This document shows, in pieces, positions 43,978-63,414 of a stretch of DNA of 64,000 bases. Positions within the stretch are counted from its first letter, which is position 1; every line of letters starts with the position of its first letter. This DNA is from Sphingomonadales bacterium (GTDB taxonomy: Bacteria; Pseudomonadota; Alphaproteobacteria; Sphingomonadales; Sphingomonadaceae). Under the pieces are notes generated by a model, which was not told the origin of the DNA, ran no database searches, and saw only the letters and a list, made by a program, of their open reading frames with translations. The stretch is from contig JBBSFH010000003.1 of the NCBI GenBank assembly GCA_038238915.1, forward strand, positions 105,294 to 169,293, read 5' to 3'. The position numbers and the translations under genes are program-made.

Positions 43978-44202
43978 CAATGTCCTCCCCGACGATCGCT
44001 TTTCTACTTTCGCGTAAAGAATACGACATTCGAGTAGGATGCAAGGGGGTTCGGCGCGAATCGATCGATCAGGATCGTAGAAACCTCCGCCGGGTTGACG
44101 CGCATTGCCCGCGCCGTATCTACTGCCGAGTAGGATTCGTAGACTGGCGGGCAACTATCCGCCTCCAGCTCTGCGACGTGGACGAGAGAACGGAGGGACG
44201 CG

Positions 44203-45075
44203 GTGGACCAGTTCGCGATCGGCACCTTTCGGGTCCACCGTGTCGAGGAATGGCGCGGGCCTCTCCTCCCGCCGCGCCAGCTGTTTGCGCTGCGCGATCC
44301 GGGACCGCCGATCGAGGATGTCGATCTCGATGATGACCCAATCGAGGCATATATCCAGAGCTGGGTGATCGAGACGCCGACCCGCACGATCCTGCTCGAT
44401 ACCGGCTGCGGCAACCACAAGAACCGGCCCGGTATCCCGGTCTTCGGCGATCTCTCGACCGATTTCCTCGACCGCCTCGCTGCGATCGGCTTCTCGCGAG
44501 GAGACATCGACCTTGTCGTGTGCACCCATCTCCATGTCGATCACGTCGGCTGGAACACGTGCCGCGATGGCGATCGGTGGGTGCCCACGTTCCCAAACGC
44601 CCGGTATGTATTTCCCCGTGCAGACGTCGAATATTGGGATCCGTGCAACCGGGAGCGCTTTCCAGCGATGATCGGCGCGGCGGTGAACGCGGGGTTCTTC
44701 GACGACAGTGTGCGCCCGATCCTCGACGCCGGCCTCGCCGATCTCGTATCCGCCCCGGTCGATCTTGATGAGGGCGTTTCGCTCGATCCCACACCTGGCC
44801 ATACTCCCGGCAGCCAGGCGATAACCATCGCCAGTGGTGGCGAACGCGCGATGTTCATCGGCGATGTCCTCCACCATCCGCTGCAGATCCGATATCCGCA
44901 GCTCAACAGCATCTTCTGTGAGGACGCCATTCGTGCGCGCGCCACGCGGCTGGGTGTGCTGGCGTGCGCGGCAGAGACGAACGCGGTCCTCGTGCCCGCG
45001 CATTTTGGAGACGAGCACATTGTGCGCGTCCAGCGCCACAGAGAGACCTTCCGCGCGGTCCCGGCCTTCGCGTGA
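44203..45075 (+). CDS. Metallo-beta-lactamase-fold hydrolase (lactonase/esterase-like)
   Basis: HxHxDH motif in VVCTHLHVDHVGWN, with later His/Asp ligand contexts (TPGHTPGS, HFGDEH). Confidence 0.8.
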   Translation: MDQFAIGTFRVHRVEEWRGPLLPPRQLFALRDPGPPIEDVDLDDDPIEAYIQSWVIETPTRTILLDTGCGNHKNRPGIPVFGDLSTDFLDRLAAIGFSRGDIDLVVCTHLHVDHVGWNTCRDGDRWVPTFPNARYVFPRADVEYWDPCNRERFPAMIGAAVNAGFFDDSVRPILDAGLADLVSAPVDLDEGVSLDPTPGHTPGSQAITIASGGERAMFIGDVLHHPLQIRYPQLNSIFCEDAIRARATRLGVLACAAETNAVLVPAHFGDEHIVRVQRHRETFRAVPAFA

Positions 45076-47021: not shown

Positions 47022-47023
47022 GC

Positions 47024-48046
47024 ATGTCAGCCGGACAACTAGCGGGCCTCAAAGTGGTCGAGTTTGCCGGACTTGGCCCGGTTGCCTTCGCCGGCATGAT
47101 GCTGGCCGACATGGGGGCGGACGTGACCCGCATCGCGCGCCCGGGCGAGCCCGCGGTCAGCCCCGGCGATCCCGCGCTCGACATCCTGCTGCGCGGCCGC
47201 GCCTACGTCAGGCTTGATCTGCGCTCCCCAGGCGGGGTTGCGCAAGCCATGCCGCTGGTCGAACAGGCGGACATACTAATCGAGGGCTTCCGCCCGGGCG
47301 TGATGGAGCGGCTCGGCCTTGGTCCTGAACCGTGCGTCGCCGCGAACCCCGCGCTGATCTACGTGCGCCTCACCGGCTGGGGGCAGACCGGGCCGCTCGC
47401 GCACAAGGCGGGTCACGATATCAACTATCTCGCGGTCGCGGGCGCGCTGCATCCGATCGGTCCGGCGGGCAAACCGCCCGTACCGCCGCTCAATTACATC
47501 GGCGATTTCGGGGGCGGGGGGATGCTGGCGGTAGTCGGCGCGCTCGCCGCGCTCGCCGCGCGAGCGCGCACGGGACGCGGCGAAGTGATCGATGTGGCGA
47601 TGGTCGATGGCATCGGCCTGCAGATGGCGATGCTATACTCGTGGCGGGCAATGGGCTTCTGGACCGACCGGCGCGGCGAGAATCTGCTCGATGGCGGTGC
47701 GTATTTCTATCGCTGCTACGAAACCGCAGACGGGGCTTATCTCGCGGTTGGCGCACTGGAACCGCAGTTCCACCGGGCCTTTATCGACGGTCTGGGCCTC
47801 GACCCGGCTGGGTTCGAGCCCCAATATGACCGATCGCGATGGCCAGAACGCGCCGAGCGCATTGCCGGGGTGATCGCCGGGAAGACGCGCGCCGCATGGG
47901 TGGAGGCCTTCGCCGATCTCGACGGCTGTGTGTCGCCGGTGCTCACACCCGACGAAGCCATCGACCATCCCGCCAGCCGCGCGCGCGCGGCGCATATCGA
48001 GGCGGCGGGACAATGGCAGCCCGCCCCCGCACCCCGCTTTGGGTGA
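47024..48046 (+). CDS. Family III CoA-transferase (CaiB/BaiF, alpha-methylacyl-CoA racemase-like)
   Basis: MSAGQLAGLKVVEFAGLGPVAFAGMMLADMGADVTRIARPG..., DILIEGFRPGVMERLGLGPE, GHDINYLAVAGAL. ATG at 47024 (the track ORF opens at TTG 47018). Confidence 0.85.
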   Translation: MSAGQLAGLKVVEFAGLGPVAFAGMMLADMGADVTRIARPGEPAVSPGDPALDILLRGRAYVRLDLRSPGGVAQAMPLVEQADILIEGFRPGVMERLGLGPEPCVAANPALIYVRLTGWGQTGPLAHKAGHDINYLAVAGALHPIGPAGKPPVPPLNYIGDFGGGGMLAVVGALAALAARARTGRGEVIDVAMVDGIGLQMAMLYSWRAMGFWTDRRGENLLDGGAYFYRCYETADGAYLAVGALEPQFHRAFIDGLGLDPAGFEPQYDRSRWPERAERIAGVIAGKTRAAWVEAFADLDGCVSPVLTPDEAIDHPASRARAAHIEAAGQWQPAPAPRFG

Positions 48047-48165: not shown

Positions 48166-49641
48166 TCAGCGGCGTGGCGGTGGTATCGTACGCGCTGAGG
48201 TGCCGCTTGGAGGAGCGGTCCTGTTCGGAGCGCCAGCCTGCGCTGGCCCTGCGGCCACGTGCGGTGCCGTTGTTGCGTCCGTTCTGGATGTGCTGCCTGC
48301 ACCTGCGACGGGTGCCGCATTTCCGCCCGCCGGTGGAGGCGTGACCACCGTGCCACCCGAAGCACCCGTCGCGCCACTGCTGCCGGTTGCGGGCGGCGGC
48401 GGAAGCGGCGGTGCGACCACGCTTGCCGGGATCGGTGCCCCCGCGCTTGCCAGGCGCGTATCCATCGCCGTGCGCCGCGCCGTCTCGGCGTCGCGCACGC
48501 CTGCCGCGCGCGTGCTATCCGATGCGCTCGCCAGCCGTGCCTCCTCTTGCGGATTGAGCGTGTTGACGCGGATGCGGTCCACCTCCTGAACACCCGCGAG
48601 CCGGGCGAGCGGCACATAATCGCTGCGGAAGACAAGCTCGACCTGGCTATTGAGATCGACGCTGGTGTTCGTTTCCTCGGTGGTGCGCGTCTGTTCGGTG
48701 GTGACATAGCCGATGGTGTTCTTGACGCTGGCAGATGCGCCCCATGGCCCCATGCCGAAGCTGCCGCTGGCGGCGATCTCGTTGTGCATATCGAAGCTCG
48801 ATCCGCGATCGTCGTTGGCGGCGCTGCGTGTATCGATGTGAAAGCGCATTCCCGCGCTGATCCGCCCGCTTTCGATGACGATGCGTTGCAGGCCCATCAT
48901 CACCATCGAGGAGAGCATCTGCTGCCGGTTCTTCGCCATCGCCGCGCGCGCGAAGCCCACCAGGCCCTCGGGATCGCCGCTCGGCACAGGATCTTCGGGG
49001 CGCAGCAAAAGCCCGCCGCGCAGCGCGCCCTCGCTCGGCATCTGCTGTCCGGGTGCCAGGACGAGACGGGTCTCGCGGTCGCGCTGGGCTTGGGCTTCGG
49101 CGCGTTCGTCGGGCGTCATCGCGGCGCGATCCTCGGCACTGGTATCGTCCTCGGGGCCCTGGACGCGGAAGTTGGGGAATTTATCCGCGAGCCACGCGCG
49201 CGCGCCGGACACGCCCACCTGCGCGTCGGCGAACCCTTCGGTGCTGGCTGCTACGTTGCGGATCAGATCGAGATAGGCCTGCAGCTGCTGCTGGTTGCTA
49301 TCGTTCATCGCCTTGAAGACGCCGGTGATCAGCTCGGTGACGAAGCGCGGGAAAGAGACCGCGTTCAGCACCGCCTGCGTGGTGCCCGCGAGCCGATCGG
49401 TGGCGACGCCCGAGTAAGCATGACCCGCGCCGCCCTGCGCCATGGCGAGCGGGGCGGGAGCAGCCTCAGCCTGCTGCGCGAGCGCGCGAGCTGTGTGCGC
49501 CACCTTGACGAGCGCGCCCGCGATCTCGCGGCGGGTTTCGGGATGGAGCGCGTGATAGCGTTCGGACGCGGTGAGCAGATCGCGGACTGCCCCGCGAACC
49601 TCCGGGGTTGGCGCTGCGCGTGCGAGGGCGGGCTGGCCCAC
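48166..49641 (-). CDS. Unknown family 1, paralog A (491 aa; long Pro/Ala/Gly-rich C-terminal tail)
   Basis: Shares three blocks with paralogs B, C and D: SFPRFVTELITGVFKAMNDSNQQQLQAYLDLIRNVAAS, KNRQQMLSSMVMMGLQRIVIESGRISAGMRF and VELVFRSDYVPL. No signal peptide, TM segment or nucleotide-binding motif seen. Confidence 0.75.
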   Translation of the reverse strand: MGQPALARAAPTPEVRGAVRDLLTASERYHALHPETRREIAGALVKVAHTARALAQQAEAAPAPLAMAQGGAGHAYSGVATDRLAGTTQAVLNAVSFPRFVTELITGVFKAMNDSNQQQLQAYLDLIRNVAASTEGFADAQVGVSGARAWLADKFPNFRVQGPEDDTSAEDRAAMTPDERAEAQAQRDRETRLVLAPGQQMPSEGALRGGLLLRPEDPVPSGDPEGLVGFARAAMAKNRQQMLSSMVMMGLQRIVIESGRISAGMRFHIDTRSAANDDRGSSFDMHNEIAASGSFGMGPWGASASVKNTIGYVTTEQTRTTEETNTSVDLNSQVELVFRSDYVPLARLAGVQEVDRIRVNTLNPQEEARLASASDSTRAAGVRDAETARRTAMDTRLASAGAPIPASVVAPPLPPPPATGSSGATGASGGTVVTPPPAGGNAAPVAGAGSTSRTDATTAPHVAAGPAQAGAPNRTAPPSGTSARTIPPPRR

Positions 49642-49644
49642 GGC

Positions 49645-50619
49645 TCAGGCCGCGAGCGCCGCCCACGGCGAGCGCGCGGGCGCGGTCACCGGCGCGGCGG
49701 TTGGGCCAGTGGCGGGAGAAGCGGCGGGCGCGCTCGCCTCGCCGATCTTGAGCGACAGTTGCAGCCAATCGATCGCGGCGGGGATCACCGGATGATCGAG
49801 CGCGACCAGCGGACCGGCGGTCGTGACGAGCTTGGGCGCGGCGTCCGCCAGCCACGACAGGATCGTCATCCCCGCCGCCGCCCGGCTGGCGTGGAGCGAA
49901 GTGTGCACATCGGGGAGCCGACCCATGCGCAGCGCCCCCGCGACCGCGCCCCAGACGTCGTGCGCGCCAAGCGCGAGGCGCAGATCGGGGTGGTGGAAGA
50001 TCGCGAACGCGGCCTTGATCGTGGCGAGCAGATCCTGCGCCATCATTACGGTGAGCCCGCTCGCAGCATTGGCCAGCCCCTCGGCAACGCGCGTGGCGGC
50101 GCGGCGCACGCGCGCCTGCTGCTGGAGGCCGCCCCACTGCGGATTGGTGGCGGCTTCATCGAGTTTGTAGAGCGCCTCGGTCAGTTCGATCATATCGGTT
50201 TCGAAATCGGCGTTGCCGGGATGATCGGCGGCGGCGACGCCGGTATCGCTGCCGAACAGGCGCGCGAATAGCGCCGCGCGCTCGTCCGGCGTGGCGCGCG
50301 TGTGGCGGTGTTGCCAGAATTGGGCGACATCGGGGGCGGCTCCGCCGAGTGCGAATGGAACGCCCGCACCGCTGAGCCCGGTCAGCGCCTCGGCAGCCCC
50401 GATCAGCCCGGCTGCATCGAGTTCGGCGGCAAGATACAGCCCCGCGATCGCGCGCAGTTGCGCGGAATCGGCGGTCGCGATGGGTGGCGGCAGGTCGATG
50501 CCCAGATCTTCGAGCGCCGTGGCAAAGCTGTGCGCTTGCGCGATCAGCCGCTCGGCCTCGCCGATCGCGCGCAACATCGTGGGTGCGTCGGGCGCTTCGT
50601 GGAGAGGACGCCCGGCCAT
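49645..50619 (-). CDS. Unknown family 2, short member (324 aa, all-helical)
   Basis: Blocks FWQHRHTRATPDERAALFARLFG, NADFETDMIELTEAL and HHPDLRLALGAHDVWGAV align to the C-terminal half of the 612-aa protein at 54210..56048. The start overlaps the stop of paralog B by 1 nt (TGATG). Confidence 0.7.
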   Translation of the reverse strand: MAGRPLHEAPDAPTMLRAIGEAERLIAQAHSFATALEDLGIDLPPPIATADSAQLRAIAGLYLAAELDAAGLIGAAEALTGLSGAGVPFALGGAAPDVAQFWQHRHTRATPDERAALFARLFGSDTGVAAADHPGNADFETDMIELTEALYKLDEAATNPQWGGLQQQARVRRAATRVAEGLANAASGLTVMMAQDLLATIKAAFAIFHHPDLRLALGAHDVWGAVAGALRMGRLPDVHTSLHASRAAAGMTILSWLADAAPKLVTTAGPLVALDHPVIPAAIDWLQLSLKIGEASAPAASPATGPTAAPVTAPARSPWAALAA

Positions 50620-51830
50620 CAGGCGTGCGCCGGGGCGGGCGTTGCGGCGGCGGCGGAGGGTTTGTTGGGATTGTACGGGAGCGAATTGCCCTGGATGACG
50701 CTCATCATCTCGGGCGTCGCCATCTTCTCCAGCGGCAGGTAATCGCTCTTGAAGTTGACGCGCACGTCGCCCGAGAGCTTGGCCTTGACTTCGGCCTTGC
50801 TTTCGCTCGTCTCATCGACCGCCGAGCCGACGGTGGCCATATGTTCCTGGACGTTTTCGTTGGTGTCGCTCGCGGAAACGCCCCAGCCGCTGAATCCCGC
50901 AGACGCCACGTTGCGGTTCATCGAGCTTTCCTTGTCGAACATCGATGCGCGCGCATCGGTCTTGGCAGTATCGCTCGCGCGCATATCGAACACGACTTTG
51001 GCATTTATTGACCCATCCGTAATAACTATGCGGTTTATACCGAGCATGACCATCGATGATAGCAGTTGCTGGCGTTGGCGAGCCATCTGCAATCTTGCGG
51101 CGGTGACGAGACGCGCCTCCGCGTTCGCGTCCGACAGATCAGTGATCGGCGGGTTGATGTTCATCTCGGCACTGATCTTGGCAAGCGCAACGGCGGGATC
51201 GTCGCCAACCGGCACGAGACGAGCGACGGGCGGCGCGGGATCGCCCTCGGCGAACGACGAGCTGCTCGAGATGTCGACAGCAAGCGCATCGGGAAAGCGC
51301 CCGGCGAGATAATCACGCCCCGCGCCCTCGCCGATATTGTCGGTCATGAATTGATCGACGGTCTTGGCGACGTTGGAGATCAGCTCGCCATAGGCTCGCA
51401 TCTGTTGCATCGAACTTTCGACGATCGCCTGGAAGACGTTCTTGATCAGACCACCGACGAACTTGGGGAAATCGACCTTCTGCACCAGCGCGCCGAACTG
51501 CTCGACACCCTGTTTGACCGCGCCCGCCTCGAAATTTTTGCCGACTTGTCCGGGTAGTCCCTTGGTAAGTTTGCCAAAGTTCTTGATGCCATCTGCCTGA
51601 TCCATCGCGCTCGCGGTAGGCGGCGTCGGCGTCGCCGACAGCGCGGTGCTCACCGCGTTCGGATCGGCGATGTAGCTCATCACTTTCACCATATCGCGCG
51701 CGAGCTGCTGCTGTTCGGGCTGCGGCAGTGCGCCAAACGCGGGGGCGGCGATCAGCATATCGCGCACCTGCGGACGCACGGCGGCAAGCGCCTGCCCGCT
51801 TGTCCAGCCGGGCGGATCGGCGAGCGCCAC
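50619..51830 (-). CDS. Unknown family 1, paralog B (403 aa)
   Basis: Blocks DFPKFVGGLIKNVFQAIVESSMQQMRAYGELISNVAKT, RQRQQLLSSMVMLGINRIVITDGSINAKVVF and VRVNFKSDYLPL. Confidence 0.75.
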   Translation of the reverse strand: MALADPPGWTSGQALAAVRPQVRDMLIAAPAFGALPQPEQQQLARDMVKVMSYIADPNAVSTALSATPTPPTASAMDQADGIKNFGKLTKGLPGQVGKNFEAGAVKQGVEQFGALVQKVDFPKFVGGLIKNVFQAIVESSMQQMRAYGELISNVAKTVDQFMTDNIGEGAGRDYLAGRFPDALAVDISSSSSFAEGDPAPPVARLVPVGDDPAVALAKISAEMNINPPITDLSDANAEARLVTAARLQMARQRQQLLSSMVMLGINRIVITDGSINAKVVFDMRASDTAKTDARASMFDKESSMNRNVASAGFSGWGVSASDTNENVQEHMATVGSAVDETSESKAEVKAKLSGDVRVNFKSDYLPLEKMATPEMMSVIQGNSLPYNPNKPSAAAATPAPAHA

Positions 51831-51834
51831 GGCC

Positions 51835-53136
51835 TTACGCCCGGGCGGGAGCGGCGGCGGGCGCGGCGGCGGCTGGCGGCGGCGTGGCCACGCGTGCCGA
51901 CGGCAACACGTTGGGATCGACCGGCGTGGAGTTTCCCTGGATCGCGGCGATCATGCCGGGCGTCGCCATCTTGTCCAAGGGCAGGTAATCGCTTTTGAAG
52001 TTGACTTCGACCGCGCCCATCAAATCGGCCGACGCCTGCAAGGACTCGACGCTCGAATCCTGCGCCGCGCTCATCGCGGTGATGATAGGCTTATTCTCGA
52101 ACTGGTATGTGCCCTTGGCGTAACGCTCGCTCGAACTGTCGACCGCGCCGTCCTTGTCGCGGGTGTAATTACCCTTACTGCTGCCATCGTAGGTGCCAGA
52201 CCCCGCGTAGGTCGTCTGGACGTTGCCATTCTGGTCGCGCGCCATGTCCATCGCCTGCGCGCTACGCTCGAGTTTACGGTTTTCCGCCGCTTGGAACTTG
52301 AACATCACCTTGGCCGAAATCTTGCCGCTGGTGACGACGATGCGATTGATGCCAAGCAGGACGGTGCTCGCCATCATCTGCTGGCGCTGCTTGGCAAGCT
52401 GCATTCGCGCGCCGACGACGAGCGCGCGCTCGACATTCTCGTCCGAGAGATCGAGGCTTTTCAGCTCGCCGTTCTCGAAACTCATCGAGCTGTTGACCTT
52501 CGCCCGCGCCTCACCCTCGTCCACCCCCTCGCGCAATTTCAGCTTGGGCTGCGGGTTGTCGCTCATCTCGTCGACGCCGATTTCGAACATGTCGGGGAAC
52601 TTTTGCTTAACATGATCGCGGCCGGCGTTTTCGGAGACATTGTCTTTCATGAATTCTTCCAGCGATTTGGCCACACTGGCGACCATCTTGCTGAATTCTT
52701 CCATCTGGGTAATCGACGTGTGAACGATCGCGTCGAACACGTTGGTGATCAGCCCGCCGACGAAGCCGGGAAAGTTGATGCCCTGGACGTAGTTGACCGC
52801 CGCAGTCACGCCCGCGTTGATCGCATCGGCCTTGAACCCACCCTTGCCGATCTCGCTCACTGCCTTCTGATGATCCTGAAACGTCCCCTCCTGTACCGGA
52901 CCGAAGGCACGCGCTGCGGGCGCGATGCCAAGGCCACCCGGAAGCCGCTGGCCCTCAAAACCCTCGGGCGCAGCCAGATAATCGGAGACAAGCGCCAGAT
53001 CCTTGGCGAGCGCGCGCTGCTTCTCGGGCGACATTGCAGCAAACGCGGGGCTACGCGTGAGAAGCCCGCGCACCGCCTCGCGCACTTCGGCGCGCGGGGT
53101 GGGCAGACGGACCGGGGGGGCGGAGGGCGGATGCAT
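51835..53136 (-). CDS. Unknown family 1, paralog C (433 aa)
   Basis: Blocks NFPGFVGGLITNVFDAIVHTSITQMEEFSKMVASVAKS, KQRQQMMASTVLLGINRIVVTSGKISAKVMF and VEVNFKSDYLPL. The N-terminal block PRAEVREAVRGLLTRSPAFAAMSPEKQRALAKDLALVSDYLAAP is shared with A and B. Confidence 0.75.
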   Translation of the reverse strand: MHPPSAPPVRLPTPRAEVREAVRGLLTRSPAFAAMSPEKQRALAKDLALVSDYLAAPEGFEGQRLPGGLGIAPAARAFGPVQEGTFQDHQKAVSEIGKGGFKADAINAGVTAAVNYVQGINFPGFVGGLITNVFDAIVHTSITQMEEFSKMVASVAKSLEEFMKDNVSENAGRDHVKQKFPDMFEIGVDEMSDNPQPKLKLREGVDEGEARAKVNSSMSFENGELKSLDLSDENVERALVVGARMQLAKQRQQMMASTVLLGINRIVVTSGKISAKVMFKFQAAENRKLERSAQAMDMARDQNGNVQTTYAGSGTYDGSSKGNYTRDKDGAVDSSSERYAKGTYQFENKPIITAMSAAQDSSVESLQASADLMGAVEVNFKSDYLPLDKMATPGMIAAIQGNSTPVDPNVLPSARVATPPPAAAAPAAAPARA

Positions 53137-53162
53137 CGGACTTCACTCCGTCTTGGAAGGGA

Positions 53163-54197
53163 TCAGGCGGCGAGTTGCTGGAGCGCCTGCGGACTCACCT
53201 CGAACTCGGCCGGACGCAGATAAAGGCTGATGCGCGGCGGCGCGTTGACGCCAGCGCGCACCGAGAGGATCGAGAAACGCCCGGGCCATACCTCGTCCTC
53301 GGGCGTGAACGCGGTCATCCAGCGACTGAGCGCGGCGAGTTCGCGCGGGCGTTCGGACATGCCGAGCGTCAGCAGGCTCAAAAACTCGGGCGGCAGATCG
53401 GGGATGCGCGCCAGCTGGACGTACAGCTCGAATTCGGGGCCGTGGTGCCCGATCCCGAACGCCATCAACGCCGAGGCGGGAGGAAGCTCGAAGCGCCCGC
53501 CGAGCACCAGGCCCAGGATTTGCATGATGCCGGGCAACCGCTCCCCCATCCCCAGTTCGTCGAGCACCGGACCGAGATCGGAGAGTTTGAGCGCATCGGG
53601 ATAGATGAACGTCAGCCGCTGGCCGCCCATATCGCGCTGCGCGCTGATCGTGGTGAACAGCGGCCTCAGCCCCGGCAGCATCCGCTGCGCGGTGGTGACC
53701 ACCTGGAACAGCGCAGGCGGCAGCTGCATCATCGCGGCGGGCGAGGTTTCGTAATAGACCTTGGAGGCATACAACCCGTCGCTATCGGTCGCAGCGCCGA
53801 AGAACGCGCCATAATCGAGGTTGTCCGATCCGAACCCGCGATAGGGTTCGGAGCGCTCGTCGAACCAGCGCAGCGTATCGCGCCCCAGGAACGCGCCGAC
53901 CATGCGGCGCATCTCGCGCGTCGCCTCGTCGCGCCGGTCCGCACCGCTTGCCTGCGGGGGCAGCGGTTCGATCGTGAAGCGGAGCTTGACGGGCTGCGTC
54001 TCCGAAAAGCTCGGCTCGAACGGTGCGGCCATCGGCGAGAGCGCGTTCCTCGCATAGCGCGGATCGCCTGCGGGCATCGGAAAGGTGCGGCCGATCAGGT
54101 CCGCCATCGGCGGTCCGGGATCGGCGGCTCCCAGCGCGCGCGCCGCCTGCGCGAGCCGCTGGGTGACCTTGGCGGAGAGGGGTTGGATGCGCATCAT
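53163..54197 (-). CDS. Hypothetical protein, possibly ABBA/DMATS-like aromatic prenyltransferase fold (tentative)
   Basis: 344 aa with recurring beta-strand motifs spaced like alpha-beta-beta-alpha repeats: VKLRFTIEPL, SKVYYETSP, QRLTFIYPD, EFELYVQL, RISLYLRPAEF. Assigned by pattern only. Confidence 0.3.
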   Translation of the reverse strand: MMRIQPLSAKVTQRLAQAARALGAADPGPPMADLIGRTFPMPAGDPRYARNALSPMAAPFEPSFSETQPVKLRFTIEPLPPQASGADRRDEATREMRRMVGAFLGRDTLRWFDERSEPYRGFGSDNLDYGAFFGAATDSDGLYASKVYYETSPAAMMQLPPALFQVVTTAQRMLPGLRPLFTTISAQRDMGGQRLTFIYPDALKLSDLGPVLDELGMGERLPGIMQILGLVLGGRFELPPASALMAFGIGHHGPEFELYVQLARIPDLPPEFLSLLTLGMSERPRELAALSRWMTAFTPEDEVWPGRFSILSVRAGVNAPPRISLYLRPAEFEVSPQALQQLAA

Positions 54198-54209
54198 GAT
54201 GCTCTCTCC

Positions 54210-56048
54210 CTAGTGACGTTGTGCGTTGCCGTTGCGCATTCCCATGCCCATTGCCGCGCCCGGGATCTCGTCCAGGAACTCGCGCGCGAACGCCGGGATC
54301 TGCACGGGTTGCGAGGTCATCACCGGAGACATTCGCGGCTGGCTCATCTCGTCCACACGGCTGTCCGACGTGGCGGTATCGGCGAGCCAGAGTTCGCACG
54401 CGTTGACGAGATCATAGTCGGACGGGTTTTTGGTCGCCTGGCTCGACAGCGTTGGCGCGGGCGAGCGCACGTCCATCATGTCGATCAGCACGCCCATCGG
54501 GCGCATGATCTTCACGATGTTGTTCGCCAGCCACGCGGTGATGATCGCGCCGCAGGTCGCGAGTACGCGGTAACGCGAACTGGTGCGCGCGCCGTGGAGG
54601 TCGCGCGTGGCGACCACGTCGATCACGCCCCACATGTCCTTGGCACCATGCGCGGCCTTGATCTCGGGATCGTCCAGGAGCGCGATCATCTGCTTGATCT
54701 CGCCCTGCAGTTCGAGCGCGGCGTAGTAAGTCATGCCAAAGCCGTGCAGCGACAGATTGGAGGCAAGATCGCGCGCCGCCTTGCGCATCTGCTGTGCTCC
54801 GGTTGCACTCGGCATCGCCGCGCGCAGCAGCTTGTCGACGTCCTGGTTGCGCACGAACTGCGAGACCGAGGAGACGAAGCGCAGCCACAGATCATTAAAA
54901 TCGGTATTGCCCTGGATCGCCGGATTCCCACCCGGCTGGCCCATCGTCATCGCGTAGAGATCGCGCCGCTCGGGCTCGCTCATGCGGTTGGGCGATTCCT
55001 TCCAGCGCTTGTAGAGGATTTGCCCGGCATTGCCCTTGCCGATCGCGAGCATGCCATTCTGGGCATTTTCGAGCAGCTTGTCGACGACCTGGAAGGCTTT
55101 TAGCTCATCGAGCATCGCCGCGCAGATCACCGGCCCCATCAGGCGCACATTGTCCGACACGATCTCGGTGTTCGAGACCGCGTCCAGATCGGGCAGATCG
55201 ATACCGATTTCGCTGGTGACGCCGTTGCCGGCAATGTTCTGGACCGTATCCAGCGCCTCGCTGACCTTGCGGCTGAGCTGCGGCGTGAACTGATCGACTT
55301 GCTTGAGCGCAAGCGCGCGCATCACCTTGGCGAACTCGGTCGCATCTACGTTCTGTGCGGGAGGGTGGGTGCCCTGTGTGTAGTTGGTACTGCCGTCCTG
55401 GTCATCGGCAATGGCACCGAGCTGGCCCAGAATGGCGAGCACGCGGCTGGATAGCGGCTTGTACGATTGTGCCTCGCCAACCGCCTTGAAGAAGGCCTTC
55501 CCCATAGCGGGCATCAGTGGGCTATCGGCGTCGGAGATCAGCGCGAAGTCGATGAACTGGTCTTGGGGCTGATCAGCCGGGTTAGGCGGCACATAGCCAA
55601 GACTGATTTTGACGGGGGGCGGCGTCACGCCGTCCAGCACCAGCAACCCGATTGTCAGCGCGCAGTCCACTGCGTTCGCTGTGTTGAGATTGCCCTTGAG
55701 GAGTTTGAGTGCGACGCCCGGCGGCTCGGAATCGAGCGATCCGACCGGATTGCCGAGTGTATCGTTCAACAGGCCGGTCCGGGCGTTGAACTGATCGCGC
55801 GCGGCAACAAACAGCGGATCGCAAAACTCGCCGCGTTGATCGTCGATGACGTCGAGCGTCAGCGCGATCCGGGCGCGTTCGGCCTTCTCCTCGATCGAAT
55901 AGAAAACCTGATCGGTCTCGCGGCCGACCCCCTGGCCGCCACGCGAGCGGGCAGAGCGATCGAGCTGGATCAATCGTTCGTTCAGCCGATGCCGTTCGGC
56001 AAGCTCGCGCTGGGCGATATCGCGGTACTGGATGGTGGTCACACTCAT
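54210..56048 (-). CDS. Unknown family 2, long member (612 aa)
   Basis: ATG at 56048, 8 nt after AAGGAG, inside ORF 54210..56393. Alternative ATGs at 56102 and 56099 overlap the S8 stop. The C-terminal half (LYKRWKESPNRMSEPERRDLYAMTMG, NTDFNDLWLRFVSSV, DDPEIKAAHGAKDMWGVI) is paralogous to 49645..50619. Confidence 0.7.
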   Translation of the reverse strand: MSVTTIQYRDIAQRELAERHRLNERLIQLDRSARSRGGQGVGRETDQVFYSIEEKAERARIALTLDVIDDQRGEFCDPLFVAARDQFNARTGLLNDTLGNPVGSLDSEPPGVALKLLKGNLNTANAVDCALTIGLLVLDGVTPPPVKISLGYVPPNPADQPQDQFIDFALISDADSPLMPAMGKAFFKAVGEAQSYKPLSSRVLAILGQLGAIADDQDGSTNYTQGTHPPAQNVDATEFAKVMRALALKQVDQFTPQLSRKVSEALDTVQNIAGNGVTSEIGIDLPDLDAVSNTEIVSDNVRLMGPVICAAMLDELKAFQVVDKLLENAQNGMLAIGKGNAGQILYKRWKESPNRMSEPERRDLYAMTMGQPGGNPAIQGNTDFNDLWLRFVSSVSQFVRNQDVDKLLRAAMPSATGAQQMRKAARDLASNLSLHGFGMTYYAALELQGEIKQMIALLDDPEIKAAHGAKDMWGVIDVVATRDLHGARTSSRYRVLATCGAIITAWLANNIVKIMRPMGVLIDMMDVRSPAPTLSSQATKNPSDYDLVNACELWLADTATSDSRVDEMSQPRMSPVMTSQPVQIPAFAREFLDEIPGAAMGMGMRNGNAQRH

Positions 56049-56098
56049 GGCTGGTCTCCTTTGCTCCGGTTGGCCTTTGCGTTTGCGTTGCGTGGCCA

Positions 56099-57529
56099 TC
56101 ATCCGTCCTCGGTTTCGGGTTGGTCGTGGTCGATGAAACGATCGACCGCAGCGAGCGCGGCGGCGGCATCGAGTACCCCCGCGCCGCAGCCGGGTGCCGG
56201 GCCGGGGAAGGTACGCGCGGACGCGGCTAGCAGGTGCTTGATCATGGGCGGATCGAGCGGGAAGGCGCGGCGTTCGGCGCGCGCGATCATCAGCGCGACC
56301 GTCGCGGTGACGAATGGCGCGGCAAAGCTGGTGCCCGTCGCGCGCTGATAGCCTTCGAGCGCAGCGGTGAAGACGCGCTCGCCCGGCGCGCACAGCGCCA
56401 CATGATCGCCGCGCGTCGAGAAGCCGGTAGGCCGCATGTCCGCGCCGACTGCGCCCACCGCGATCACCTGCGGGTAGGCGGCAGGCCAGTAGACGGTTTC
56501 CTTGCCGTTGTTGCCGCTCGCGGCGACGAAGGCGCAGCCGCGGTCCGCACCATAGGCGATCACGTCGGCGTGCGGCTTGGGGATATGCGCTCCGAGCTGC
56601 GCATCGTCTGTGCCGAAACTGAGGTTGAGCACGCGCGCGCCCAGATCGATCGCGAGCTTGGCGGCGGCATCAAGATCGGCGATCGCACCCATGCCGATCG
56701 CGCCCGCGCGCCCTGGCAGCCGGGCCGCGCCGAGCGCGCGCATCGGCAACAGCTGCGCCTCGCCCGCCATCCCCGGCGGCATATCGAGGCCGAGCGCGCC
56801 GATGATCGCCGCGCAGGCCGAGCCGTGGCCGACATAATGATCGACCGGCTCATGATCGGGATTGTTCCCGCTGCTAAGGATCTCGACACCTTGGGCGACA
56901 TCGCTCTGGCCAAGATTGACGGTATCATAGCCCTGGCGGAAGCGGCGCGCGAATTCGGGGTGGGTGGGTGCGACGCCGCTATCGACGATGCCCACGATCA
57001 CGGTGCTGTCGCCGGGTTCGTAGGCGAGCGCCTGCGGGCCACGGATCATCGCCCACGGCGCCCACATCTCCCCGTCGTCGACCGTTTCGACCGCGAAGGC
57101 CATGTCGAAAGGATTGGCGGCGACATAATTGGGGCTTGCCCACTCGACCGTGCTTACAGCCGAGAGCGCGTCGACCAGATTGCCGAGCGCGGTGGTGCGA
57201 TCGGTTTTGATGAGGAAGGTGCGCGCGAGGCCGCTCGTCTGTTCGGCGTCGGTATAGTGGCGGTTGCGGGAGCCCTTGCGGCCGATATTGGCGGCGGACG
57301 TATGCAGCCGCGCAATCGCAACCTCGCCGCCGTGCGCATGCAGGATGCGATCGATCGCGCCGCCGTCCATCGTGCGTGCCGCCGGAGCCGCGTGGTCGCG
57401 CACGTCGTTTCTCGCGGGGATCGCGGCAGGCGCTTCGCCGAGCGCCACCTTGAGTAGCAGCGAGCCGGGCAGGCAGTAGGCGCTCGATCCGGGCGGAACC
57501 CAGGGCGCGGCGAGGCGGCGCATCGTCAT
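56099..57529 (-). CDS. Subtilisin-like serine protease (S8 family) without an obvious signal peptide
   Basis: Catalytic contexts GIVDSGVAPTHPEF (Asp), HYVGHGSACAAIIGA (His), VAASGNNG (oxyanion Asn) and ATGTSFAAPFVTA (Ser). About 150 aa of N-terminal pro-region. ATGA overlap with the upstream gene. Confidence 0.85.
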   Translation of the reverse strand: MTMRRLAAPWVPPGSSAYCLPGSLLLKVALGEAPAAIPARNDVRDHAAPAARTMDGGAIDRILHAHGGEVAIARLHTSAANIGRKGSRNRHYTDAEQTSGLARTFLIKTDRTTALGNLVDALSAVSTVEWASPNYVAANPFDMAFAVETVDDGEMWAPWAMIRGPQALAYEPGDSTVIVGIVDSGVAPTHPEFARRFRQGYDTVNLGQSDVAQGVEILSSGNNPDHEPVDHYVGHGSACAAIIGALGLDMPPGMAGEAQLLPMRALGAARLPGRAGAIGMGAIADLDAAAKLAIDLGARVLNLSFGTDDAQLGAHIPKPHADVIAYGADRGCAFVAASGNNGKETVYWPAAYPQVIAVGAVGADMRPTGFSTRGDHVALCAPGERVFTAALEGYQRATGTSFAAPFVTATVALMIARAERRAFPLDPPMIKHLLAASARTFPGPAPGCGAGVLDAAAALAAVDRFIDHDQPETEDG

Positions 57530-58317
57530 GCGTGTGCTCCCGTGCCGTTGATTGCGCCGTTAGCCACCGGCGGCGGTGGCGCGAACGGGCGCAGATCAAA
57601 CGCCATCGAGGTGGCGACCATAGGCGCGGGCTCGACGCGAAGTTCACCCGCCCATTGATGCGGCGCGGGTGCGAGCAGCAGTTCGTCCGCGCTCGCCTTC
57701 ACCACCGCTACCGGCTCGCCGCCAAGCGTCACCGATGGCGGCCCCGCCTGCATGAGGTTGCGCCCGCGCACGCGCATCAGCGGCATGTCGCCCTCGCCGC
57801 CGGGGACGGGCACCACATGCTCCATCAGCGGCGCGGACGCGCGTTCGAGTGCCTTGCGCAGCCGATCGATGGGCAGGTTGGTCACGCGCCCGATCGCTGA
57901 ATCGCCGCCACGCGCCATGCTCTCCTTGAGCTTTGAGACGGTGCGCACGCCGACCCATTCGAGCTTGCGGCGATCCTCCTCGGACAACCCGTCGCCCAGT
58001 TCGTCGAGCGAGGTATCATGCGGACCGTCCGCAAACGCGACCGCGTTCTCCTCGATCATCGGCCGGGTGATCGCGGCGAACACGAGGTGGAACACGCTCG
58101 CCTGCACATCCGCCGCCCCGGCCGGGCGAATGCGGATTTCGCCCGCCGTAAACTCCACCTGCGCGCGCAGATCGAGCGTGATGTCCTTGATCGCGAAGGT
58201 GAGCGGCAGATTGAGGTTATGCGCCTTCACCGCCATCGCGGTCTGCGCCTTATCGAGCTGGCTTTGCACCGCCTGAATGAAGTTTTCGAGCGGGAGGGCG
58301 GCGGTGGCGGTGGTCAT
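57526..58317 (-). CDS. Hypothetical protein (263 aa): N-terminal helix + beta-hairpin domain, HhH-like middle, IPT/TIG-like C-terminus
   Basis: ATG at 58317 inside ORF 57526..58419, with an ATGA overlap onto the 75-aa ORF. PLENFIQAVQSQLDKAQTAMAVKAHNLNLPLTFAIKDITLDLRAQVEF; LEWVGVRTVSKLKE...LPIDRLRKAL; MRVRGRNLMQAGPPSVTLGGEPVAVVKASADELLLAP. Confidence 0.6.
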   Translation of the reverse strand: MTTATAALPLENFIQAVQSQLDKAQTAMAVKAHNLNLPLTFAIKDITLDLRAQVEFTAGEIRIRPAGAADVQASVFHLVFAAITRPMIEENAVAFADGPHDTSLDELGDGLSEEDRRKLEWVGVRTVSKLKESMARGGDSAIGRVTNLPIDRLRKALERASAPLMEHVVPVPGGEGDMPLMRVRGRNLMQAGPPSVTLGGEPVAVVKASADELLLAPAPHQWAGELRVEPAPMVATSMAFDLRPFAPPPPVANGAINGTGAHA

Positions 58318-58541
58318 GGCCGTGCCTCCCACGTGAGGTGGAGGCGCGAGGGGGGCGCATCGAACTGGGTTCGTGTGACGGTGCGCGGGAAATCGGCGAA
58401 CAGCGCGCCGCCGGTCCACGCGATTTCGATGGGGAGCTTCATTTCGATGCGGGTGACGCGCACGCCGACGCTACCGCCCGCGACCATTGCGCCCTCGGCC
58501 ACCTCCGCGATCATATCGCCCATTTGGCGCCGCGCGCTCAC
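58314..58541 (-). CDS. Small hypothetical protein (75 aa)
   Basis: MSARRQMGDMIAEVAEGAMVAGGSVGVRVTRIEMKLPIEIAWTGG... Coupled on both sides: its GTG start overlaps the stop of paralog D (GTGA) and its TGA stop overlaps the next ATG (ATGA). Confidence 0.5.
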   Translation of the reverse strand: MSARRQMGDMIAEVAEGAMVAGGSVGVRVTRIEMKLPIEIAWTGGALFADFPRTVTRTQFDAPPSRLHLTWEARP

Positions 58542-59677
58542 CGTGTTGCTCCAGCGGGTGCGGGCGGCGGGGCGGACGCGATCACGACCGGCGGGGGCAG
58601 CGTGGCGACGGCGCTTGGGGGTTGCGTTGGTGCAATCGGTGGCGTGGCAGCGCGCTGCGGTCCGCGCGCGTGGCGTTCGAGCTGGCCGCGCTTGGCATCG
58701 TCCACGAAACGATCGAGCGGCACGGTCTCGCTGGCGAAGTTGATCTTCACTTCGCCAAATAACTGCGCCTTGAGTTCGCTATCGGCCTGGACATTGACGC
58801 CCATGGTCGAAACCTTCGTCGTCGGAGCGTCGTAGGTGGTCGAGCCGCGCGCTCCCCACTGTGTCGCATTGCTTTGCGGATCCGAACCGGTCGCATAATC
58901 GAATTTCTTGTGATCGGCAGCAGACGCGCGGAAGCGGACGTTGGCGTTGATCGAGCCATCCTTGACCACAACGCGATTCATTCCGAGCAGCACCATCGTC
59001 GAGAGCGTCTGCAACCGCTGCTTCGCCACGGTCTCGCGCGCATGGGCGAGGATCTGCTGTTCGAGCACCTCCGAAGTCAGTTCCTGTCCTTCCAGGCCAT
59101 AATCTGCGAGCACGCGCGGTGCCTCCGCCTCCCCGTCCGGCCCGGCTGTCCTGGCGATCGGCACCAATGTTGGTGTGCCGCTTTCGTGGTTCAGCGCCAC
59201 GTCACGCGGATATTGTTCGACAAGATAGTCACGCGCCTGGTTCGGCGTGACATTCTCCTGCGTGAATTGTTCGAGCGGCTTGGCGACGGCTGCGACAAGG
59301 TCGGCGAAGCTCTCCATCTGGCGGATCGACGCGTCGACGATCGCGTCGAACGTGCCGTGGACCAGGCTGGCAACGAAGGCGGGGAAATCGACTTCATCGA
59401 CAAGGTTGCCCACGCGCCGCCCGAGCGCGTCGGTTGCGAGTTCGCGCTTGGCGGGCGGAGAGGCGGGCGCTGGCGTTTGCGACGCGCTATCGGCGGGCGG
59501 GCCCGCCGCGTCGGGAATCTCGCGCCCGAACGCATCGCGCGCGAGGCTGCGCACGAGCGGCGCACGGCCGTAACTCGGCGGTGGAGGAGGGGGGCGCAGA
59601 CCCGGCACGTGCAACCGATCAGGCGCTGACGTGGAGGGGATCGAGTTCCCATTCGTTGGTGCGGTCGTGACGCCCAT
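58538..59677 (-). CDS. Unknown family 1, paralog D (379 aa; start uncertain, overlaps the end of the upstream gene by 59 nt)
   Basis: Blocks DFPAFVASLVHGTFDAIVDASIRQMESFADLVAAVAKP, KQRLQTLSTMVLLGMNRVVVKDGSINANVRF and VKINFASETVPL. Pro-rich N- and C-termini. Confidence 0.7.
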   Translation of the reverse strand: MGVTTAPTNGNSIPSTSAPDRLHVPGLRPPPPPPSYGRAPLVRSLARDAFGREIPDAAGPPADSASQTPAPASPPAKRELATDALGRRVGNLVDEVDFPAFVASLVHGTFDAIVDASIRQMESFADLVAAVAKPLEQFTQENVTPNQARDYLVEQYPRDVALNHESGTPTLVPIARTAGPDGEAEAPRVLADYGLEGQELTSEVLEQQILAHARETVAKQRLQTLSTMVLLGMNRVVVKDGSINANVRFRASAADHKKFDYATGSDPQSNATQWGARGSTTYDAPTTKVSTMGVNVQADSELKAQLFGEVKINFASETVPLDRFVDDAKRGQLERHARGPQRAATPPIAPTQPPSAVATLPPPVVIASAPPPAPAGATR

Positions 59678-62600
59678 CGCCGTGCAGGATCACGCGAACC
59701 GCCGATCGATGCTCGGGCTGCGTGGCGTGGGTGAAACGATGGCGCAGTTCGACCGTCATCCCCGCAACCGTCTCGCTGTCCGGCCCGTCGAGGACTTCTC
59801 CCTCGACCGCAAGTGACCAGCCGTCGCTCAGCCCCGCATTCTCGGGCATCACGCGCACATCGCCGACCGTGCCGCCGCCATAATGCCACGCGATCTTGAC
59901 CGCGCCGAAGGTTCTGCCGTGCTCGTCGGGCATTCGGGGCCAGTCCGCGACGCTGATCATCCCGGACTGGATATCGGCGTTCATCATGACTTGCGTTCGA
60001 GGCGCGCGCATGCCGTCCAGCTGTTCGAGCGAGAAGGTTACCCCGTCGCGTGCGGTGGTTTCGGTGCGGCGCATCCCCAACGGCGGCGGCCCGACGTCCA
60101 GCCCGCGCGCGGCGGTGCGCGTGGGCGGGGGCGGGGCCATGCGGCGCGGCGCGTAGGATTGCGCGTAGCCCGCCGGAGGCGATCCCCGGTTGGGCTGACG
60201 GCCGCCGGTGTCGGGCGCGTACATGATTTGCAGGATATTGTCCTCGACGCGCGCTTGCCGCATCTCGTAATCGTTCATGAACTCCTCGAAGCGCATGATG
60301 TAGCGGCTGCCTGTCGTGTGTGTATCCAGGTAGCTGCCGGGCGCTTGCGGTGTTCCGACCACGCGGTCCCAAGGGTCGGCGACGCGAACATAGGCGTTGG
60401 TGCCGTCCGAATAGAGGCCGACCACCACAACCGCGTGACCGCTATCGAACCCCGTCTGCCCCGGTGCCATGAGTTTGGTGACCACCATCGGGCCGTGCGC
60501 TTCAACCAACTGGCGGAAGCCATCGACGTTGAAGCATTGCGGCGGCCCAACTTCGAGTCCTACCTGCTTGGCAAACCGCGCCCGGGCCGCAGCGAGCGGC
60601 GATTGCCCGTCGGTGAGCGAAATGGCGCACAGCCGCGCCAGCATGTCCTCGTCTACCGATACGCGGTCGCGCCATCCAACAACCATGGCGGTTGCAGCGC
60701 CGACGCAGGTCGTACCGGTATGCTGCGGAACCAGGTCCACATCGTCCCAGGTGACGCTGAACGCGCCCGAGTCCATCGCGCGCGCGGGGGTGGATTTCGC
60801 ATACGCCAGCAGATGCCCGAACAGCCCGCCCGAGGGCGCGGCCTTCAGGTGGCCGATGTAGCGCAGCTTGGAGAAGTCGAAGCGCAGATTGGCGATATCG
60901 TCGGGCGAGGCCCAGTTGGGCTGTTCCGACGTGAGCGGTTGTCCTGCGGCGCGATAGGCTTCGAGCACCAGTTCCGAACAGAAAAAGCTGTCGTTGGAAG
61001 CCGTGCCCATGTCGATTCGGCCCGCGAACGCGCGGCAGCGGTCGGACAGGCCGTTGGGAAGCGCCGAGCACAGGCGCTGATCGATCTGGAACAGCGCCTG
61101 GCGCGCGATGCCGATGTGGTTGTAATCCTGCCCGATGTGGGCGGCGGCGGCGTCGGCCACCTGCTGGCGCTGATCGCGCGTGAGGCCGGGCACCCGGAAC
61201 GCGACTGCGACCGTGGCCGAAGCGATCGCGTCGCCGAGAGGCACCATGCGCACGCCCTCGCCCACCGCTTCGATCACCTGCCCGCCCTGATCCACATACA
61301 GCATCACGTGGCTGACCTGCCCGCTGGTGGCGGCGCGGATCGCACGGCTGATCGTCGCGTCCGTAGTCGAAAGGATGATGTCGCCCACCTGGAGCGCGTT
61401 CATCCCGATCGACTGGCCGCCGACGCCCGGATCGAGCGGGATTTCCGCATCGAACAGGCGGGCGGTGCGCGGGGGGAGGCCAAGCGACTGGCCGGTGGGC
61501 AGCGATACGCGTTGCTGGATCATCTGCATGAAATGATCCCAGTCCCACGGCGCGGCGTTGGGACAGGATGTATGCGTGGTGTGCGCGTCCGCTTCCGAAT
61601 GGCCGATGATGTGCGTGCGATCGGTCGGGATCGAGTATTTGTCGCAGAGATAGCTGACCAGCGCGGCCGATTCGGCGTATTGGATATCGGTGGGCGGTAG
61701 CGCAGGCAGCGTGGTGCGCCCGTAGGTCGCGCCGCGCTGGTTCACGCAGACGTGCTCAATCCCGATACTGCGCGAATTGACCCCGTGTGCGTGCCACGCG
61801 ATGTCCAGTTCGCGCACGAACTGCACGATCTCGCCATCCTGGCCCACGAGGTAATGAGCGCTCGAGTTCGCGTCGGCGCGCGTGAAGTGGCCAACCGTGC
61901 TTCCGGTCGTGTTCGCGTCGGTGATGTGGATGACGACGCGATCGATCGTGCGGCCCGGCCGAGAGGTGAAGGCGGGCGAGGCCTCGAAGCGCGATGCGCG
62001 CGGGTAATCGGGCGTCGCGGCGAGCGCGCCTGACCATGCCTGCGTCTGCACGGACGGATCGCTCGCGGCGGGGCCCTCAATCCCCATCGTATCGGGATCG
62101 ACGTCCATCGCACTGGCGCGCGGCCCGCATTCTCCGAGCGCCGCCGCCATGCCGAGCGTGGTCGCGACCGAACGCTGGACCGAGACGTAGAAATCGACCG
62201 GCGAGAAGCCTGCGCCCACGCCCACCTGCGCGCTCACGCCCTGGAAATTGGCCTGGGTATCGAACAGCGCCGATGCGCCCGCCACGATCCCCTCGCCGCC
62301 CGAGATGGTCGCCGAATTGCTCCAGCCGCCGAACGCATCGATCGCGCCACGTATCACGGTGATTTGCACCGACGCATTGACCGACAACACGAAGCCGACA
62401 TCGAACTGCGCGCTGCCGTAGACGCCCAGGCTGTTGTCGGGACCGAAGATGATGCCAGCCCCCAAAGTGCCGCCCGCGCCCAATCCTGCGCCCACGGACG
62501 GCCCGAGGCCGATCGACACGGGCGTGCCCGCAGCAGCCGATGCGGTTGCGGCAAGGCGGAGTGCAGCGATCATCGGTGCGAGCGGGCCGGTCAGCACCAT

Positions 62601-63410: not shown

Positions 63411-63414
63411 GGGG

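Follow-up and report, generated by a model that had tools for sequence, protein, structure and literature searches.

A stretch of 64,000 nucleotides (nt) from a Sphingomonadales bacterium (assembly GCA_038238915.1, contig JBBSFH010000003.1, positions 105,294 to 169,293), referred to below as the window, carries four minus-strand genes, here named A, B, C and D, which encode true paralogs of a protein family with no match to any curated family, no sequence match in the PDB and no significant fold match. These genes lie in a cassette of 12-13 genes whose order is kept across phyla and which also encodes a modular cell-wall hydrolase (Hyd), a subtilisin-like serine protease (S8), a predicted aromatic prenyltransferase (g344) and a second pair of paralogs (g612 and g324). 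An earlier note on this DNA had described the four paralogs; the cassette with its putative sigma-54 control, the prenyltransferase, the g612/g324 pair and the modular hydrolase all go beyond its account. A role of A-D in letting the hydrolase out of the cytoplasm is put forward below as a tentative reading and weighed against other explanations.

Paralogs A-D and the cassette that holds them

All four open reading frames (ORFs) reported in the earlier note exist on the minus strand (Table 1), every peptide quoted from them was found, and their claimed paralogy was borne out both by a four-way alignment, in which identity to A is 26-32%, and by pairwise BLASTP, with E values from 4e-24 for the A-D pair to 2e-74 for the B-C pair, a similarity well past chance. 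The residues invariant in the four-way alignment (F97, P98, F100, V101, Q119, R239, G250, R253, G259, F267, V334 and F338) cluster in the three blocks that had been noticed before. The third of these, previously given as SDYxPL, has this form in A, B and C but not in D, which reads SETVPL, and among 116 diverse members of the family the form SE-T-F-PL is commoner than SDYxPL. The variable polar stretch described between blocks 2 and 3 is real, with a median length of 55 amino acids (aa) and a composition of 16% Ser, 11% Thr, 9.5% Ala and 9% Gly, and so are the Pro/Ala-rich termini. The start of D as called lies 59 nt inside the 3' end of Hyd; as the other four overlapping junctions measure only 1-4 nt, the true start of D may be further downstream.

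The description of the family as an unknown one also held. Searches with A-D against Pfam, NCBIfam, PADLOC and PHROGs gave nothing at E <= 0.01 and never reached a curated cut-off, and the PDB sequence-profile search returned low-complexity noise only. The sole recurring Pfam match, weak and below threshold, is to DUF6683, itself uncharacterised, in 17 of the 116 diverse members (best E 3e-4). In a profile search over 1.84 billion representatives the family comprised 1,961 clusters (50% identity) at E <= 1e-3 and 490 at E <= 1e-30. The homologs listed in the first search were all named 'hypothetical protein', with the exception of one methyltransferase-fused ortholog named 'predicted O-methyltransferase YrrM'. 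In several lineages, orthologs of A are recurrently fused at their C-terminus to a class I S-adenosylmethionine (SAM) methyltransferase (proteins P0044, P0054, P0061, P0254, P0255 and P0259; loci L084 and L085, 10001-12109), the cassette being otherwise unchanged, and this fusion implies that the C-terminal end of A is cytoplasmic. A phage or prophage origin was considered and rejected, since the IMG/VR viral contigs held no A-D relative and no PHROGs match was obtained.

Read along the minus strand, the order of the elements in the window is activator gene, sigma-54 site, DUF3467, Hyd, D, g75, g264, S8, g612, g344, C, B, g324 and A. With gaps or overlaps between neighbours of -4 to +50 nt, the genes are packed as in a single operon; an intrinsic terminator was not found 3' of gene A. 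By hydropathy and motif check, signal peptides, transmembrane helices and ATPase motifs are absent from every cassette protein, and no 19-residue hydrophobic segment above 1.6 on the Kyte-Doolittle (KD) scale was seen, except a weak one inside Hyd. Scanning the g612 alignment against one genome per species returned 80 loci. Those in Pseudomonadota belong to Alphaproteobacteria (Sphingomonadales, Phenylobacterium, Ruegeria, Sedimentitalea), Burkholderiales and Xanthomonadales/Lysobacterales, and those in other phyla to Desulfobacterota (Desulfobulbus), Myxococcota, Acidobacteriota (Holophagales and others) and Actinomycetota (Cellulomonas, Amycolatopsis and others). The gene order is identical in Sphingomonas and Burkholderia genomes and on a Burkholderia pyrrocinia megaplasmid, the latter being the one match of a protein search of plasmids, while the nucleotide search gave none.

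Mapping by ORFs and phmmer showed that the synteny Hyd-D-g75-g264-S8-g612-g344-C-B-g324-A is almost invariant in at least five phyla. Fifty of the loci are well flanked, by 8 kb or more to either side; at least four A-D family genes are present in 46 of them, and Hyd, D, g264, S8, B and g324 are all present in 47. The earlier reading of A-D had been made to depend on their co-occurrence elsewhere, and four orthologous groups in fixed order were indeed found in those 46 loci and in many phyla, which makes it plausible that they are non-redundant subunits of one assembly. Several loci, of Myxococcota and of one unclassified Pseudomonadota metagenome-assembled genome (MAG) (L075-L079 and L082), carry one or two extra B-like paralogs, that is 5-6 family genes.

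As for the regulation of the operon, the promoter-like site TGGCACGCCGATTGCA fits the -24/-12 pattern TGGCAC-N5-TTGCA perfectly (consensus used, TGGCAC-N5-TTGCW), and sites of the strict pattern TGGC-N8-TGC were found upstream of DUF3467 in 14 related loci. In 33 of the 34 loci that carry DUF3467, its gene is immediately preceded by that of a short activator homolog, and the upstream gene in B. pyrrocinia is annotated as a sigma-54-dependent regulator. The sequence offers both a -24/-12 element and a cognate activator gene, from which we infer that a sigma-54 promoter drives the operon, controlled by a sensor-less activator that belongs to the cassette. The DUF3467 protein, for which the PDB sequence-profile search gave no meaningful match, may serve the hydrolase as chaperone or adaptor, or it may be the activator's partner. 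Both DUF3467 and the activator are missing from the cassette as found in Actinomycetota, Lysobacterales and Myxococcota. Because the two co-occur and are jointly absent, DUF3467 might be a regulatory partner rather than a chaperone. PspA and HrpV are regulatory partners of this kind for their own activators.

Table 1. Coordinates of the cassette elements and of neighbouring genes in the window.
Feature	Position	Strand	Description and basis
Paralog A	48166-49641	minus	491 aa; most conserved of the four; G-P-W-G tip; long C-terminal Pro/Ala/Gly tail
g324	49645-50619	minus	324 aa; paralog of the g612 C-terminal domain
Paralog B	50619-51830	minus	403 aa; ORF and four-way alignment
Paralog C	51835-53136	minus	433 aa; longest hairpin insert of the four; tip Tyr-rich, without Trp
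g344	53163-54197	minus	predicted ABBA-fold (PT-barrel) aromatic prenyltransferase, DMATS/CymD type; fold model and Foldseek
g612	54210-56048	minus	612 aa; highly conserved C-terminal domain of ~300 aa
S8	56099-57529	minus	subtilisin-like serine protease, 476 aa; Pfam Peptidase_S8, E 2e-35
g264	57526-58317	minus	263 aa; N-terminal 90 aa Trypco2/Pepco-like, below threshold
g75	58314-58541	minus	conserved small protein, 75 aa; ORF
Paralog D	58538-59677	minus	379 aa as called; start may be later
Hyd	59619-63413	minus	modular cell-wall hydrolase, ~1264 aa; Pfam domains; no signal peptide
DUF3467 protein	63415-63798	minus	127 aa; Pfam PF11950, E 1e-13, 51.5 bits against a cut-off of 25
Sigma-54 (-24/-12) promoter-like site	63808-63823	minus	TGGCACGCCGATTGCA; ~10 nt upstream of the DUF3467 start codon; consensus match
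Sigma-54 enhancer-binding protein gene, 3' end	63920-64000	minus	cut by the window edge; encodes ...AKALNWSRMTLYRKLAHYNIERSVGV*, Fis-type helix-turn-helix tail
TonB-dependent receptor	41749-44154	minus	ORF translation
Metallo-beta-lactamase-fold protein	within 41749-48046		ORF translation
Flavin monooxygenase	44964-47021		ORF translation
CoA-transferase	47018-48046		ORF translation

Predicted anatomy of A-D and a possible exit for the hydrolase

An AlphaFold2 model of A, built on an alignment of 124 sequences (mean predicted local distance difference test score, pLDDT, 71), shows a helical core at residues 13-60 and 144-250 (pLDDT 94-97), the block-1 helix at 97-131, a long beta-hairpin with strands 259-273 and 324-338 and a disordered tip at 276-319, and a C-terminal helix at 364-400 followed by a disordered Pro/Ala/Gly tail. 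This matches the anatomy that had been read from the sequence before, namely a helical core, a beta-hairpin and a variable polar insert. In both strands of the hairpin the hydropathy, averaged over the 116 diverse members, alternates position by position, with means of +4.5, -2.8, +1.8, -2.5, +3.6, -0.1, +2.6, -3.3, +3.6 and -2.9 for residues 261-270 and a like pattern for 324-339; since the alternation holds across all these members, the amphipathicity of the hairpin is a conserved property. The two predicted 15-residue amphipathic strands are long enough to span a bilayer. A Trp occurs in the hairpin loop of 90 of 114 members, usually exactly one and at a median relative position of 0.48, in the context G-[P/G]-W-[G/F]-[S/A]-S; this central residue is present in A, B and D, with the Tyr-rich tip of C having none. 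The inserts are conserved within each orthologous group, the tip of A by 60-90% across phyla.

Foldseek comparison of the A model with the PDB and BFVD gave nothing significant (best PDB E 7.5e-3, TM score below 0.12), and the iota toxin Ib pore was matched at E 3.1. Weak echoes came from proteins that form rings or tubes, namely the iota-toxin pore and the collars of FliF and phi29 (lower collar). With TM scores below 0.15, the two collars were rejected as homologs, and so were colicin Ia and the maturation proteins of ssRNA phages.

The hydrolase encoded at the head of the paralog genes is a mosaic protein. Its start was corrected to near 63413 from 63731, the ORF as first listed being ~106 codons too long. 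In the window it consists of a constant N-terminal part of ~200 aa, a Gly-rich part, Amidase_2, C92 (YaeF-like) and C70/C39-like modules and a C-terminal beta-rich module. All loci conserve the N-terminal 200 aa but differ in the modules that follow, which have been reordered, duplicated or exchanged: elsewhere one to three Amidase_2 modules, trypsin, SLT or DUF3238 modules, and up to three copies of the C-terminal beta-rich module were found (mosaic loci L006, L008, L009, L021, L028, L042, L043 and L075-L079). In the loci with extra B-like paralogs mentioned above Hyd is much shorter, 700-850 aa, and its C-terminal parts gave no Pfam match. A search with the N-terminal domain returned almost only fragments and did not reveal which cargo domains it carries outside the cassette. 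The gene directly 3' of Hyd is always paralog D, and in the loci mapped no cognate immunity gene was found immediately downstream of Hyd. As Hyd has no signal peptide and the cassette no transmembrane helix, the lytic enzyme needs some exit from the cytoplasm.

It is tentatively proposed, as a reading that is quite possible without yet being probable, that A-D are four non-redundant structural subunits of a pore or conduit through which the signal-less hydrolase is released. The four proteins would co-assemble into a hetero-oligomeric ring, whose hairpins would come together as a beta-barrel and enter the cytoplasmic membrane from its inner side. By trimming the Pro/Ala-rich tails, the Pepco-like g264 or both, S8 would license assembly or insertion, and g344 would attach a lipid to the Trp or Tyr at the apex, a modification that might likewise license assembly or insertion. 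The pore or conduit would then let the signal-less modular Hyd reach the peptidoglycan, possibly escorted by DUF3467, and the outcome would be either lysis of the producer or the release of a bacteriolytic weapon.

The accompanying proteins and the competing explanations

The most conserved protein of the cassette is g344, with a mean column identity of 62%. Its AlphaFold model (pLDDT 94, predicted template modelling score, pTM, 0.91) displays five beta-beta-alpha-alpha repeats arranged as a ten-strand PT-barrel. Foldseek gave 104 PDB matches at E <= 1e-3, and the best 50 of these 104 are all aromatic prenyltransferases, on which grounds the ABBA prenyltransferase fold is attributed to g344; the top match is CymD (6os5, E 1.8e-13), and FunA, DMATS1, PriB, bacterial 5- and 6-DMATS, IptA, TleC and FgaPT2 were also matched, with TM scores of 0.6-0.76 and identities of 13-19% to the known prenyltransferases. 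By its modelled fold, g344 can thus be confidently described as an aromatic prenyltransferase of the DMATS/CymD type. At the sequence level the signal is weaker: g344 of the window scores 13 bits against the Trp_DMAT gathering score of 25, weak matches to this model were found in 45 of 61 orthologs (best E 8e-4), neither the Trp_DMAT gathering score nor TIGR03429 membership was reached, and the PDB sequence-profile search gave no meaningful match. The invariant residues E61, R73, Y149, R188, Q193, R322, Y326 and R328 and the near-invariant K146, Y148 and R194 are found on or beside predicted strands. Such invariant Glu, Arg and Tyr on the strands of the model would be compatible with prenyltransferase activity. 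A more specific version of the mechanism, in which g344 prenylates the apex Trp or Tyr of the A-D hairpins and this modification, with S8 cleavage, drives a heteromeric barrel that exports or releases the hydrolase, is considered unlikely as it stands. To our knowledge, a folded protein as substrate would have no precedent among ABBA enzymes (cf. review PMC13290415).

The pairing of an S8 protease with an ABBA prenyltransferase is also that of the cyanobactin enzymes, and this raises the alternative of a pathway like those of ribosomally synthesised and post-translationally modified peptides (RiPPs), in which A-D would be oversized precursors whose Trp/Tyr insert is prenylated by g344 and excised by S8, with methylation in addition in some genomes. 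The prenyltransferase fold of g344, the variable segment flanked by conserved blocks, the SAM methyltransferase fused to some A orthologs and a partial match of S8 to the PatA/PatG model (2e-20) are all in line with it. On the other hand, the PatA/G match reaches only 73 bits against a cut-off of 421, and the supposed core is not hypervariable within an orthologous group, given the conservation of the A tip reported above. The precursors would moreover be 380-490 aa long with confidently folded conserved domains, and four orthologous groups are maintained separately in fixed order. No YcaO protein was found when the cassette proteins were scanned, nor is there a macrocyclase or a transporter, and the giant peptidoglycan hydrolase would be left unexplained. 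A RiPP-like pathway is consequently regarded as very improbable.

In S8 itself the motifs of the Asp, His and Ser residues are visible (VDSG, HGS and GTSFA), and the protein is cytoplasmic as encoded, the N-terminal 170 aa being unknown. Besides PatA/PatG, its nearest NCBIfam model is mycosin, below cut-off. The stop of g264 overlaps the start of S8 by 4 nt, and this adjacency is kept in 47 of the 50 loci. Compared with Trypco2 (PF19631), g264 scores 19.4-19.9 bits against a gathering score of 24.2, with E 9e-4 (about 1e-3); weak Trypco2 matches were found in 23 of 50 g264 orthologs (best E 2e-4), and one ortholog weakly matches TIG. These values are consistent with a remote, though unproven, similarity of the g264 N-terminus to Trypco2/Pepco. 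Trypco and Pepco proteins are protease-activated beta-barrel pores (bioRxiv 10.1101/2025.11.14.688446). The next protein, g75, is encoded in 42 of the 50 loci by a gene whose start and stop both overlap the neighbouring genes by 4 nt, and nothing was found for it in Pfam, NCBIfam, PADLOC or PHROGs. According to the earlier note, the helix and hairpin logic of A-D recurs in these 'two small proteins' (57526-58541). This was not upheld: hhalign finds neither of them homologous to A-D, nor to each other, and with 263 aa g264 is wrongly called small, so that the shared logic is at most an analogy. Likewise, comparison of A-D or g75 with the Pepco-like domain gave hhalign probabilities below 1%.

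The adjacency of a cytoplasmic S8 and a Trypco2/Pepco-like protein has led us to consider an anti-phage or abortive-infection suicide module, in which S8 would be the switch, the Pepco-like protein and A-D latent pores, and the hydrolase the agent that finishes lysis while the phage progeny are still immature. Pore effectors gated by a protease have been documented in defence (bioRxiv 10.1101/2025.11.14.688446), S8 weakly matches the subtilase and IetS models of PADLOC, and the cassette is patchily distributed and horizontally spread, one example adjoining a transposase. No other component matches the PADLOC system models, however, and no recognisable sensor (STAND, Avs or nucleotide signalling) was found in the cassette, while dedicated sigma-54 control would point to regulated expression rather than to a constitutively poised sentinel. 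The neighbourhood also speaks against this alternative. Downstream of the cassette, 41749-48046 holds apparently ordinary metabolic genes (Table 1), and the surroundings of the cassette, judged from ORF translations only, appear to be neither a defence island nor a prophage. The absence of A-D from IMG/VR viral contigs is neutral in this respect. On balance, a suicide module seems rather doubtful.

When the profiles of g324 and of the last ~260 aa of g612 were aligned, hhalign gave a probability of 99.9% (E 1.2e-31) over 257 columns, which makes it clear that the cassette encodes a second paralog set besides A-D. The start of g612 was corrected to 56048 from 56393 by ortholog alignment. Its C-terminal domain also exists as a lone gene of ~300 aa in Pyrinomonadaceae, Verrucomicrobia and Bifidobacteriaceae MAGs, in unrelated neighbourhoods (L060, L070-L074, L080, L081 and L083), and no relative of g612 or g324 was found in Pfam, NCBIfam, PADLOC, PHROGs or PDB profiles. 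Two paralog sets, A-D and the g612 C-terminal domain with g324, recall multi-subunit shells, and it could be imagined that together they build a soluble cytoplasmic lattice, shell or scaffold, as a compartment or filament that stores the hydrolase until the cell is lysed by another cause. A cassette with neither membrane segment nor ATPase would suit such a structure, for which the conserved N-terminal domain of Hyd could serve as a targeting tag, and the weak fold echoes of A are those of ring and tube formers (FliF collar, phi29 lower collar). These echoes are insignificant, though, no similarity to encapsulin, microcompartment or gas-vesicle proteins was seen, and a prenyltransferase and an apical Trp suit membrane targeting better. 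Storage in a lattice of this kind is accordingly held to be quite improbable.

Several observations weigh against the pore or conduit formed by A-D as well. The tip of the hairpin is strongly polar and predicted to be disordered, which is unusual in a membrane-spanning segment, and the amphipathic strands could instead pack on their own core or, within a soluble assembly, on a partner. CymD and DMATS, to which g344 is structurally closest, take free amino acids and not proteins as substrates, and the Trypco2 match of g264 is under the Pfam threshold. Twelve genes are many for a lysis device, the model gives no part to g612/g324 and g75, and no immunity gene, usual for an antibacterial effector, stands beside the hydrolase. 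Finally, since diderm and monoderm bacteria alike have the cassette, an outer membrane cannot be essential to it.

Comparison with known systems and biological meaning

Proteolysis-licensed beta-barrel pores (aerolysin, alpha-haemolysin, bacterial gasdermin, Pepco/Trypco and EACC1) share with A-D a long amphipathic hairpin with a Ser/Thr/Gly-rich segment, and with the cassette a co-encoded protease, removable Pro-rich tails and, in the neighbour g264, a Pepco-like domain. A-D differ from them in having no detected sequence or fold similarity, in their size of 380-490 aa with a large helical core and in their highly polar tip, and the cassette differs in encoding four paralogs instead of one protomer, together with a prenyltransferase and a hydrolase. 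In the alpha-pore-forming toxins (ClyA, Hbl, Nhe, AhlABC and YaxAB), mostly helical paralogous subunits encoded side by side likewise act together, and a helical body carries a beta-hairpin 'tongue'. These toxins, on the other hand, are secreted and their tongue is short and hydrophobic, whereas the A-D hairpin is far longer (15-residue strands and a loop of median 55 aa) and signal peptides are lacking; none of the ClyA, Hbl, Nhe, Ahl or Yax chains is among the 49 Foldseek matches of the A model. The resemblance of A-D to beta-barrel and tripartite pore-forming toxins is one of logic only.

Similar partial likenesses were noted for the other components. The ten-strand PT-barrel with five beta-beta-alpha-alpha repeats is shared by g344 with ABBA prenyltransferases of the DMATS/CymD type and with cyanobactin peptide prenyltransferases, but g344 is encoded in a non-biosynthetic cassette of 12 genes rather than in a natural-product cluster, and its proposed substrate is a folded protein. 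A peptidoglycan hydrolase without signal, placed beside possible membrane breachers, is reminiscent of holin-endolysin cassettes and type 10 secretion, from which the present cassette differs by the lack of a small transmembrane holin or spanin, by not being phage-borne, by far more components and by its putative sigma-54 control. Hyd, with its constant N-terminus and its shuffled, repeated lytic modules and binding repeats, is built like the polymorphic toxins delivered as effectors by type VI and type VII secretion systems (T6SS, T7SS), but neither a known trafficking domain nor a secretion ATPase is encoded in the cassette, no immunity gene adjoins Hyd, and the genes beside it match no known secretion system. 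Gas-vesicle, encapsulin/microcompartment, T7SS and contractile-injection systems were set aside, as no component matches them and the mycosin-like S8 alone recalls T7SS. As a whole, the cassette fits no known secretion, lysis, defence or biosynthetic system, and a literature search of incomplete coverage found no description of it, yielding only the preprint on Pepco and the review on prenylation cited above.

What is at stake is a family of ~2,000 clusters with no name, domain model or fold relative, carried in an order-preserving cassette that moves among at least five phyla, Gram-negative and Gram-positive. That gene order is kept across phyla implies that its function is under strong selection. 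The combination of a sigma-54 switch, a subtilase, a Pepco-like protein, a Trp-type prenyltransferase, two structural paralog sets and a shuffled hydrolase is unprecedented. If the more specific version of the mechanism, with prenylation of the hairpin apex, is true, the cassette would encode a membrane-perforating machine of a new kind, and this would include the first natural Trp prenylation of folded proteins by an ABBA enzyme, as far as we know, and a new exit route from the cytoplasm that is independent of Sec and of any ATPase. The proposal lends itself to testing, since over-expression of the activator should turn on the whole system. The cassette could reveal a new form of protein lipidation, a new mode of membrane crossing or rupture, or an antibacterial or suicide weapon of soil bacteria.

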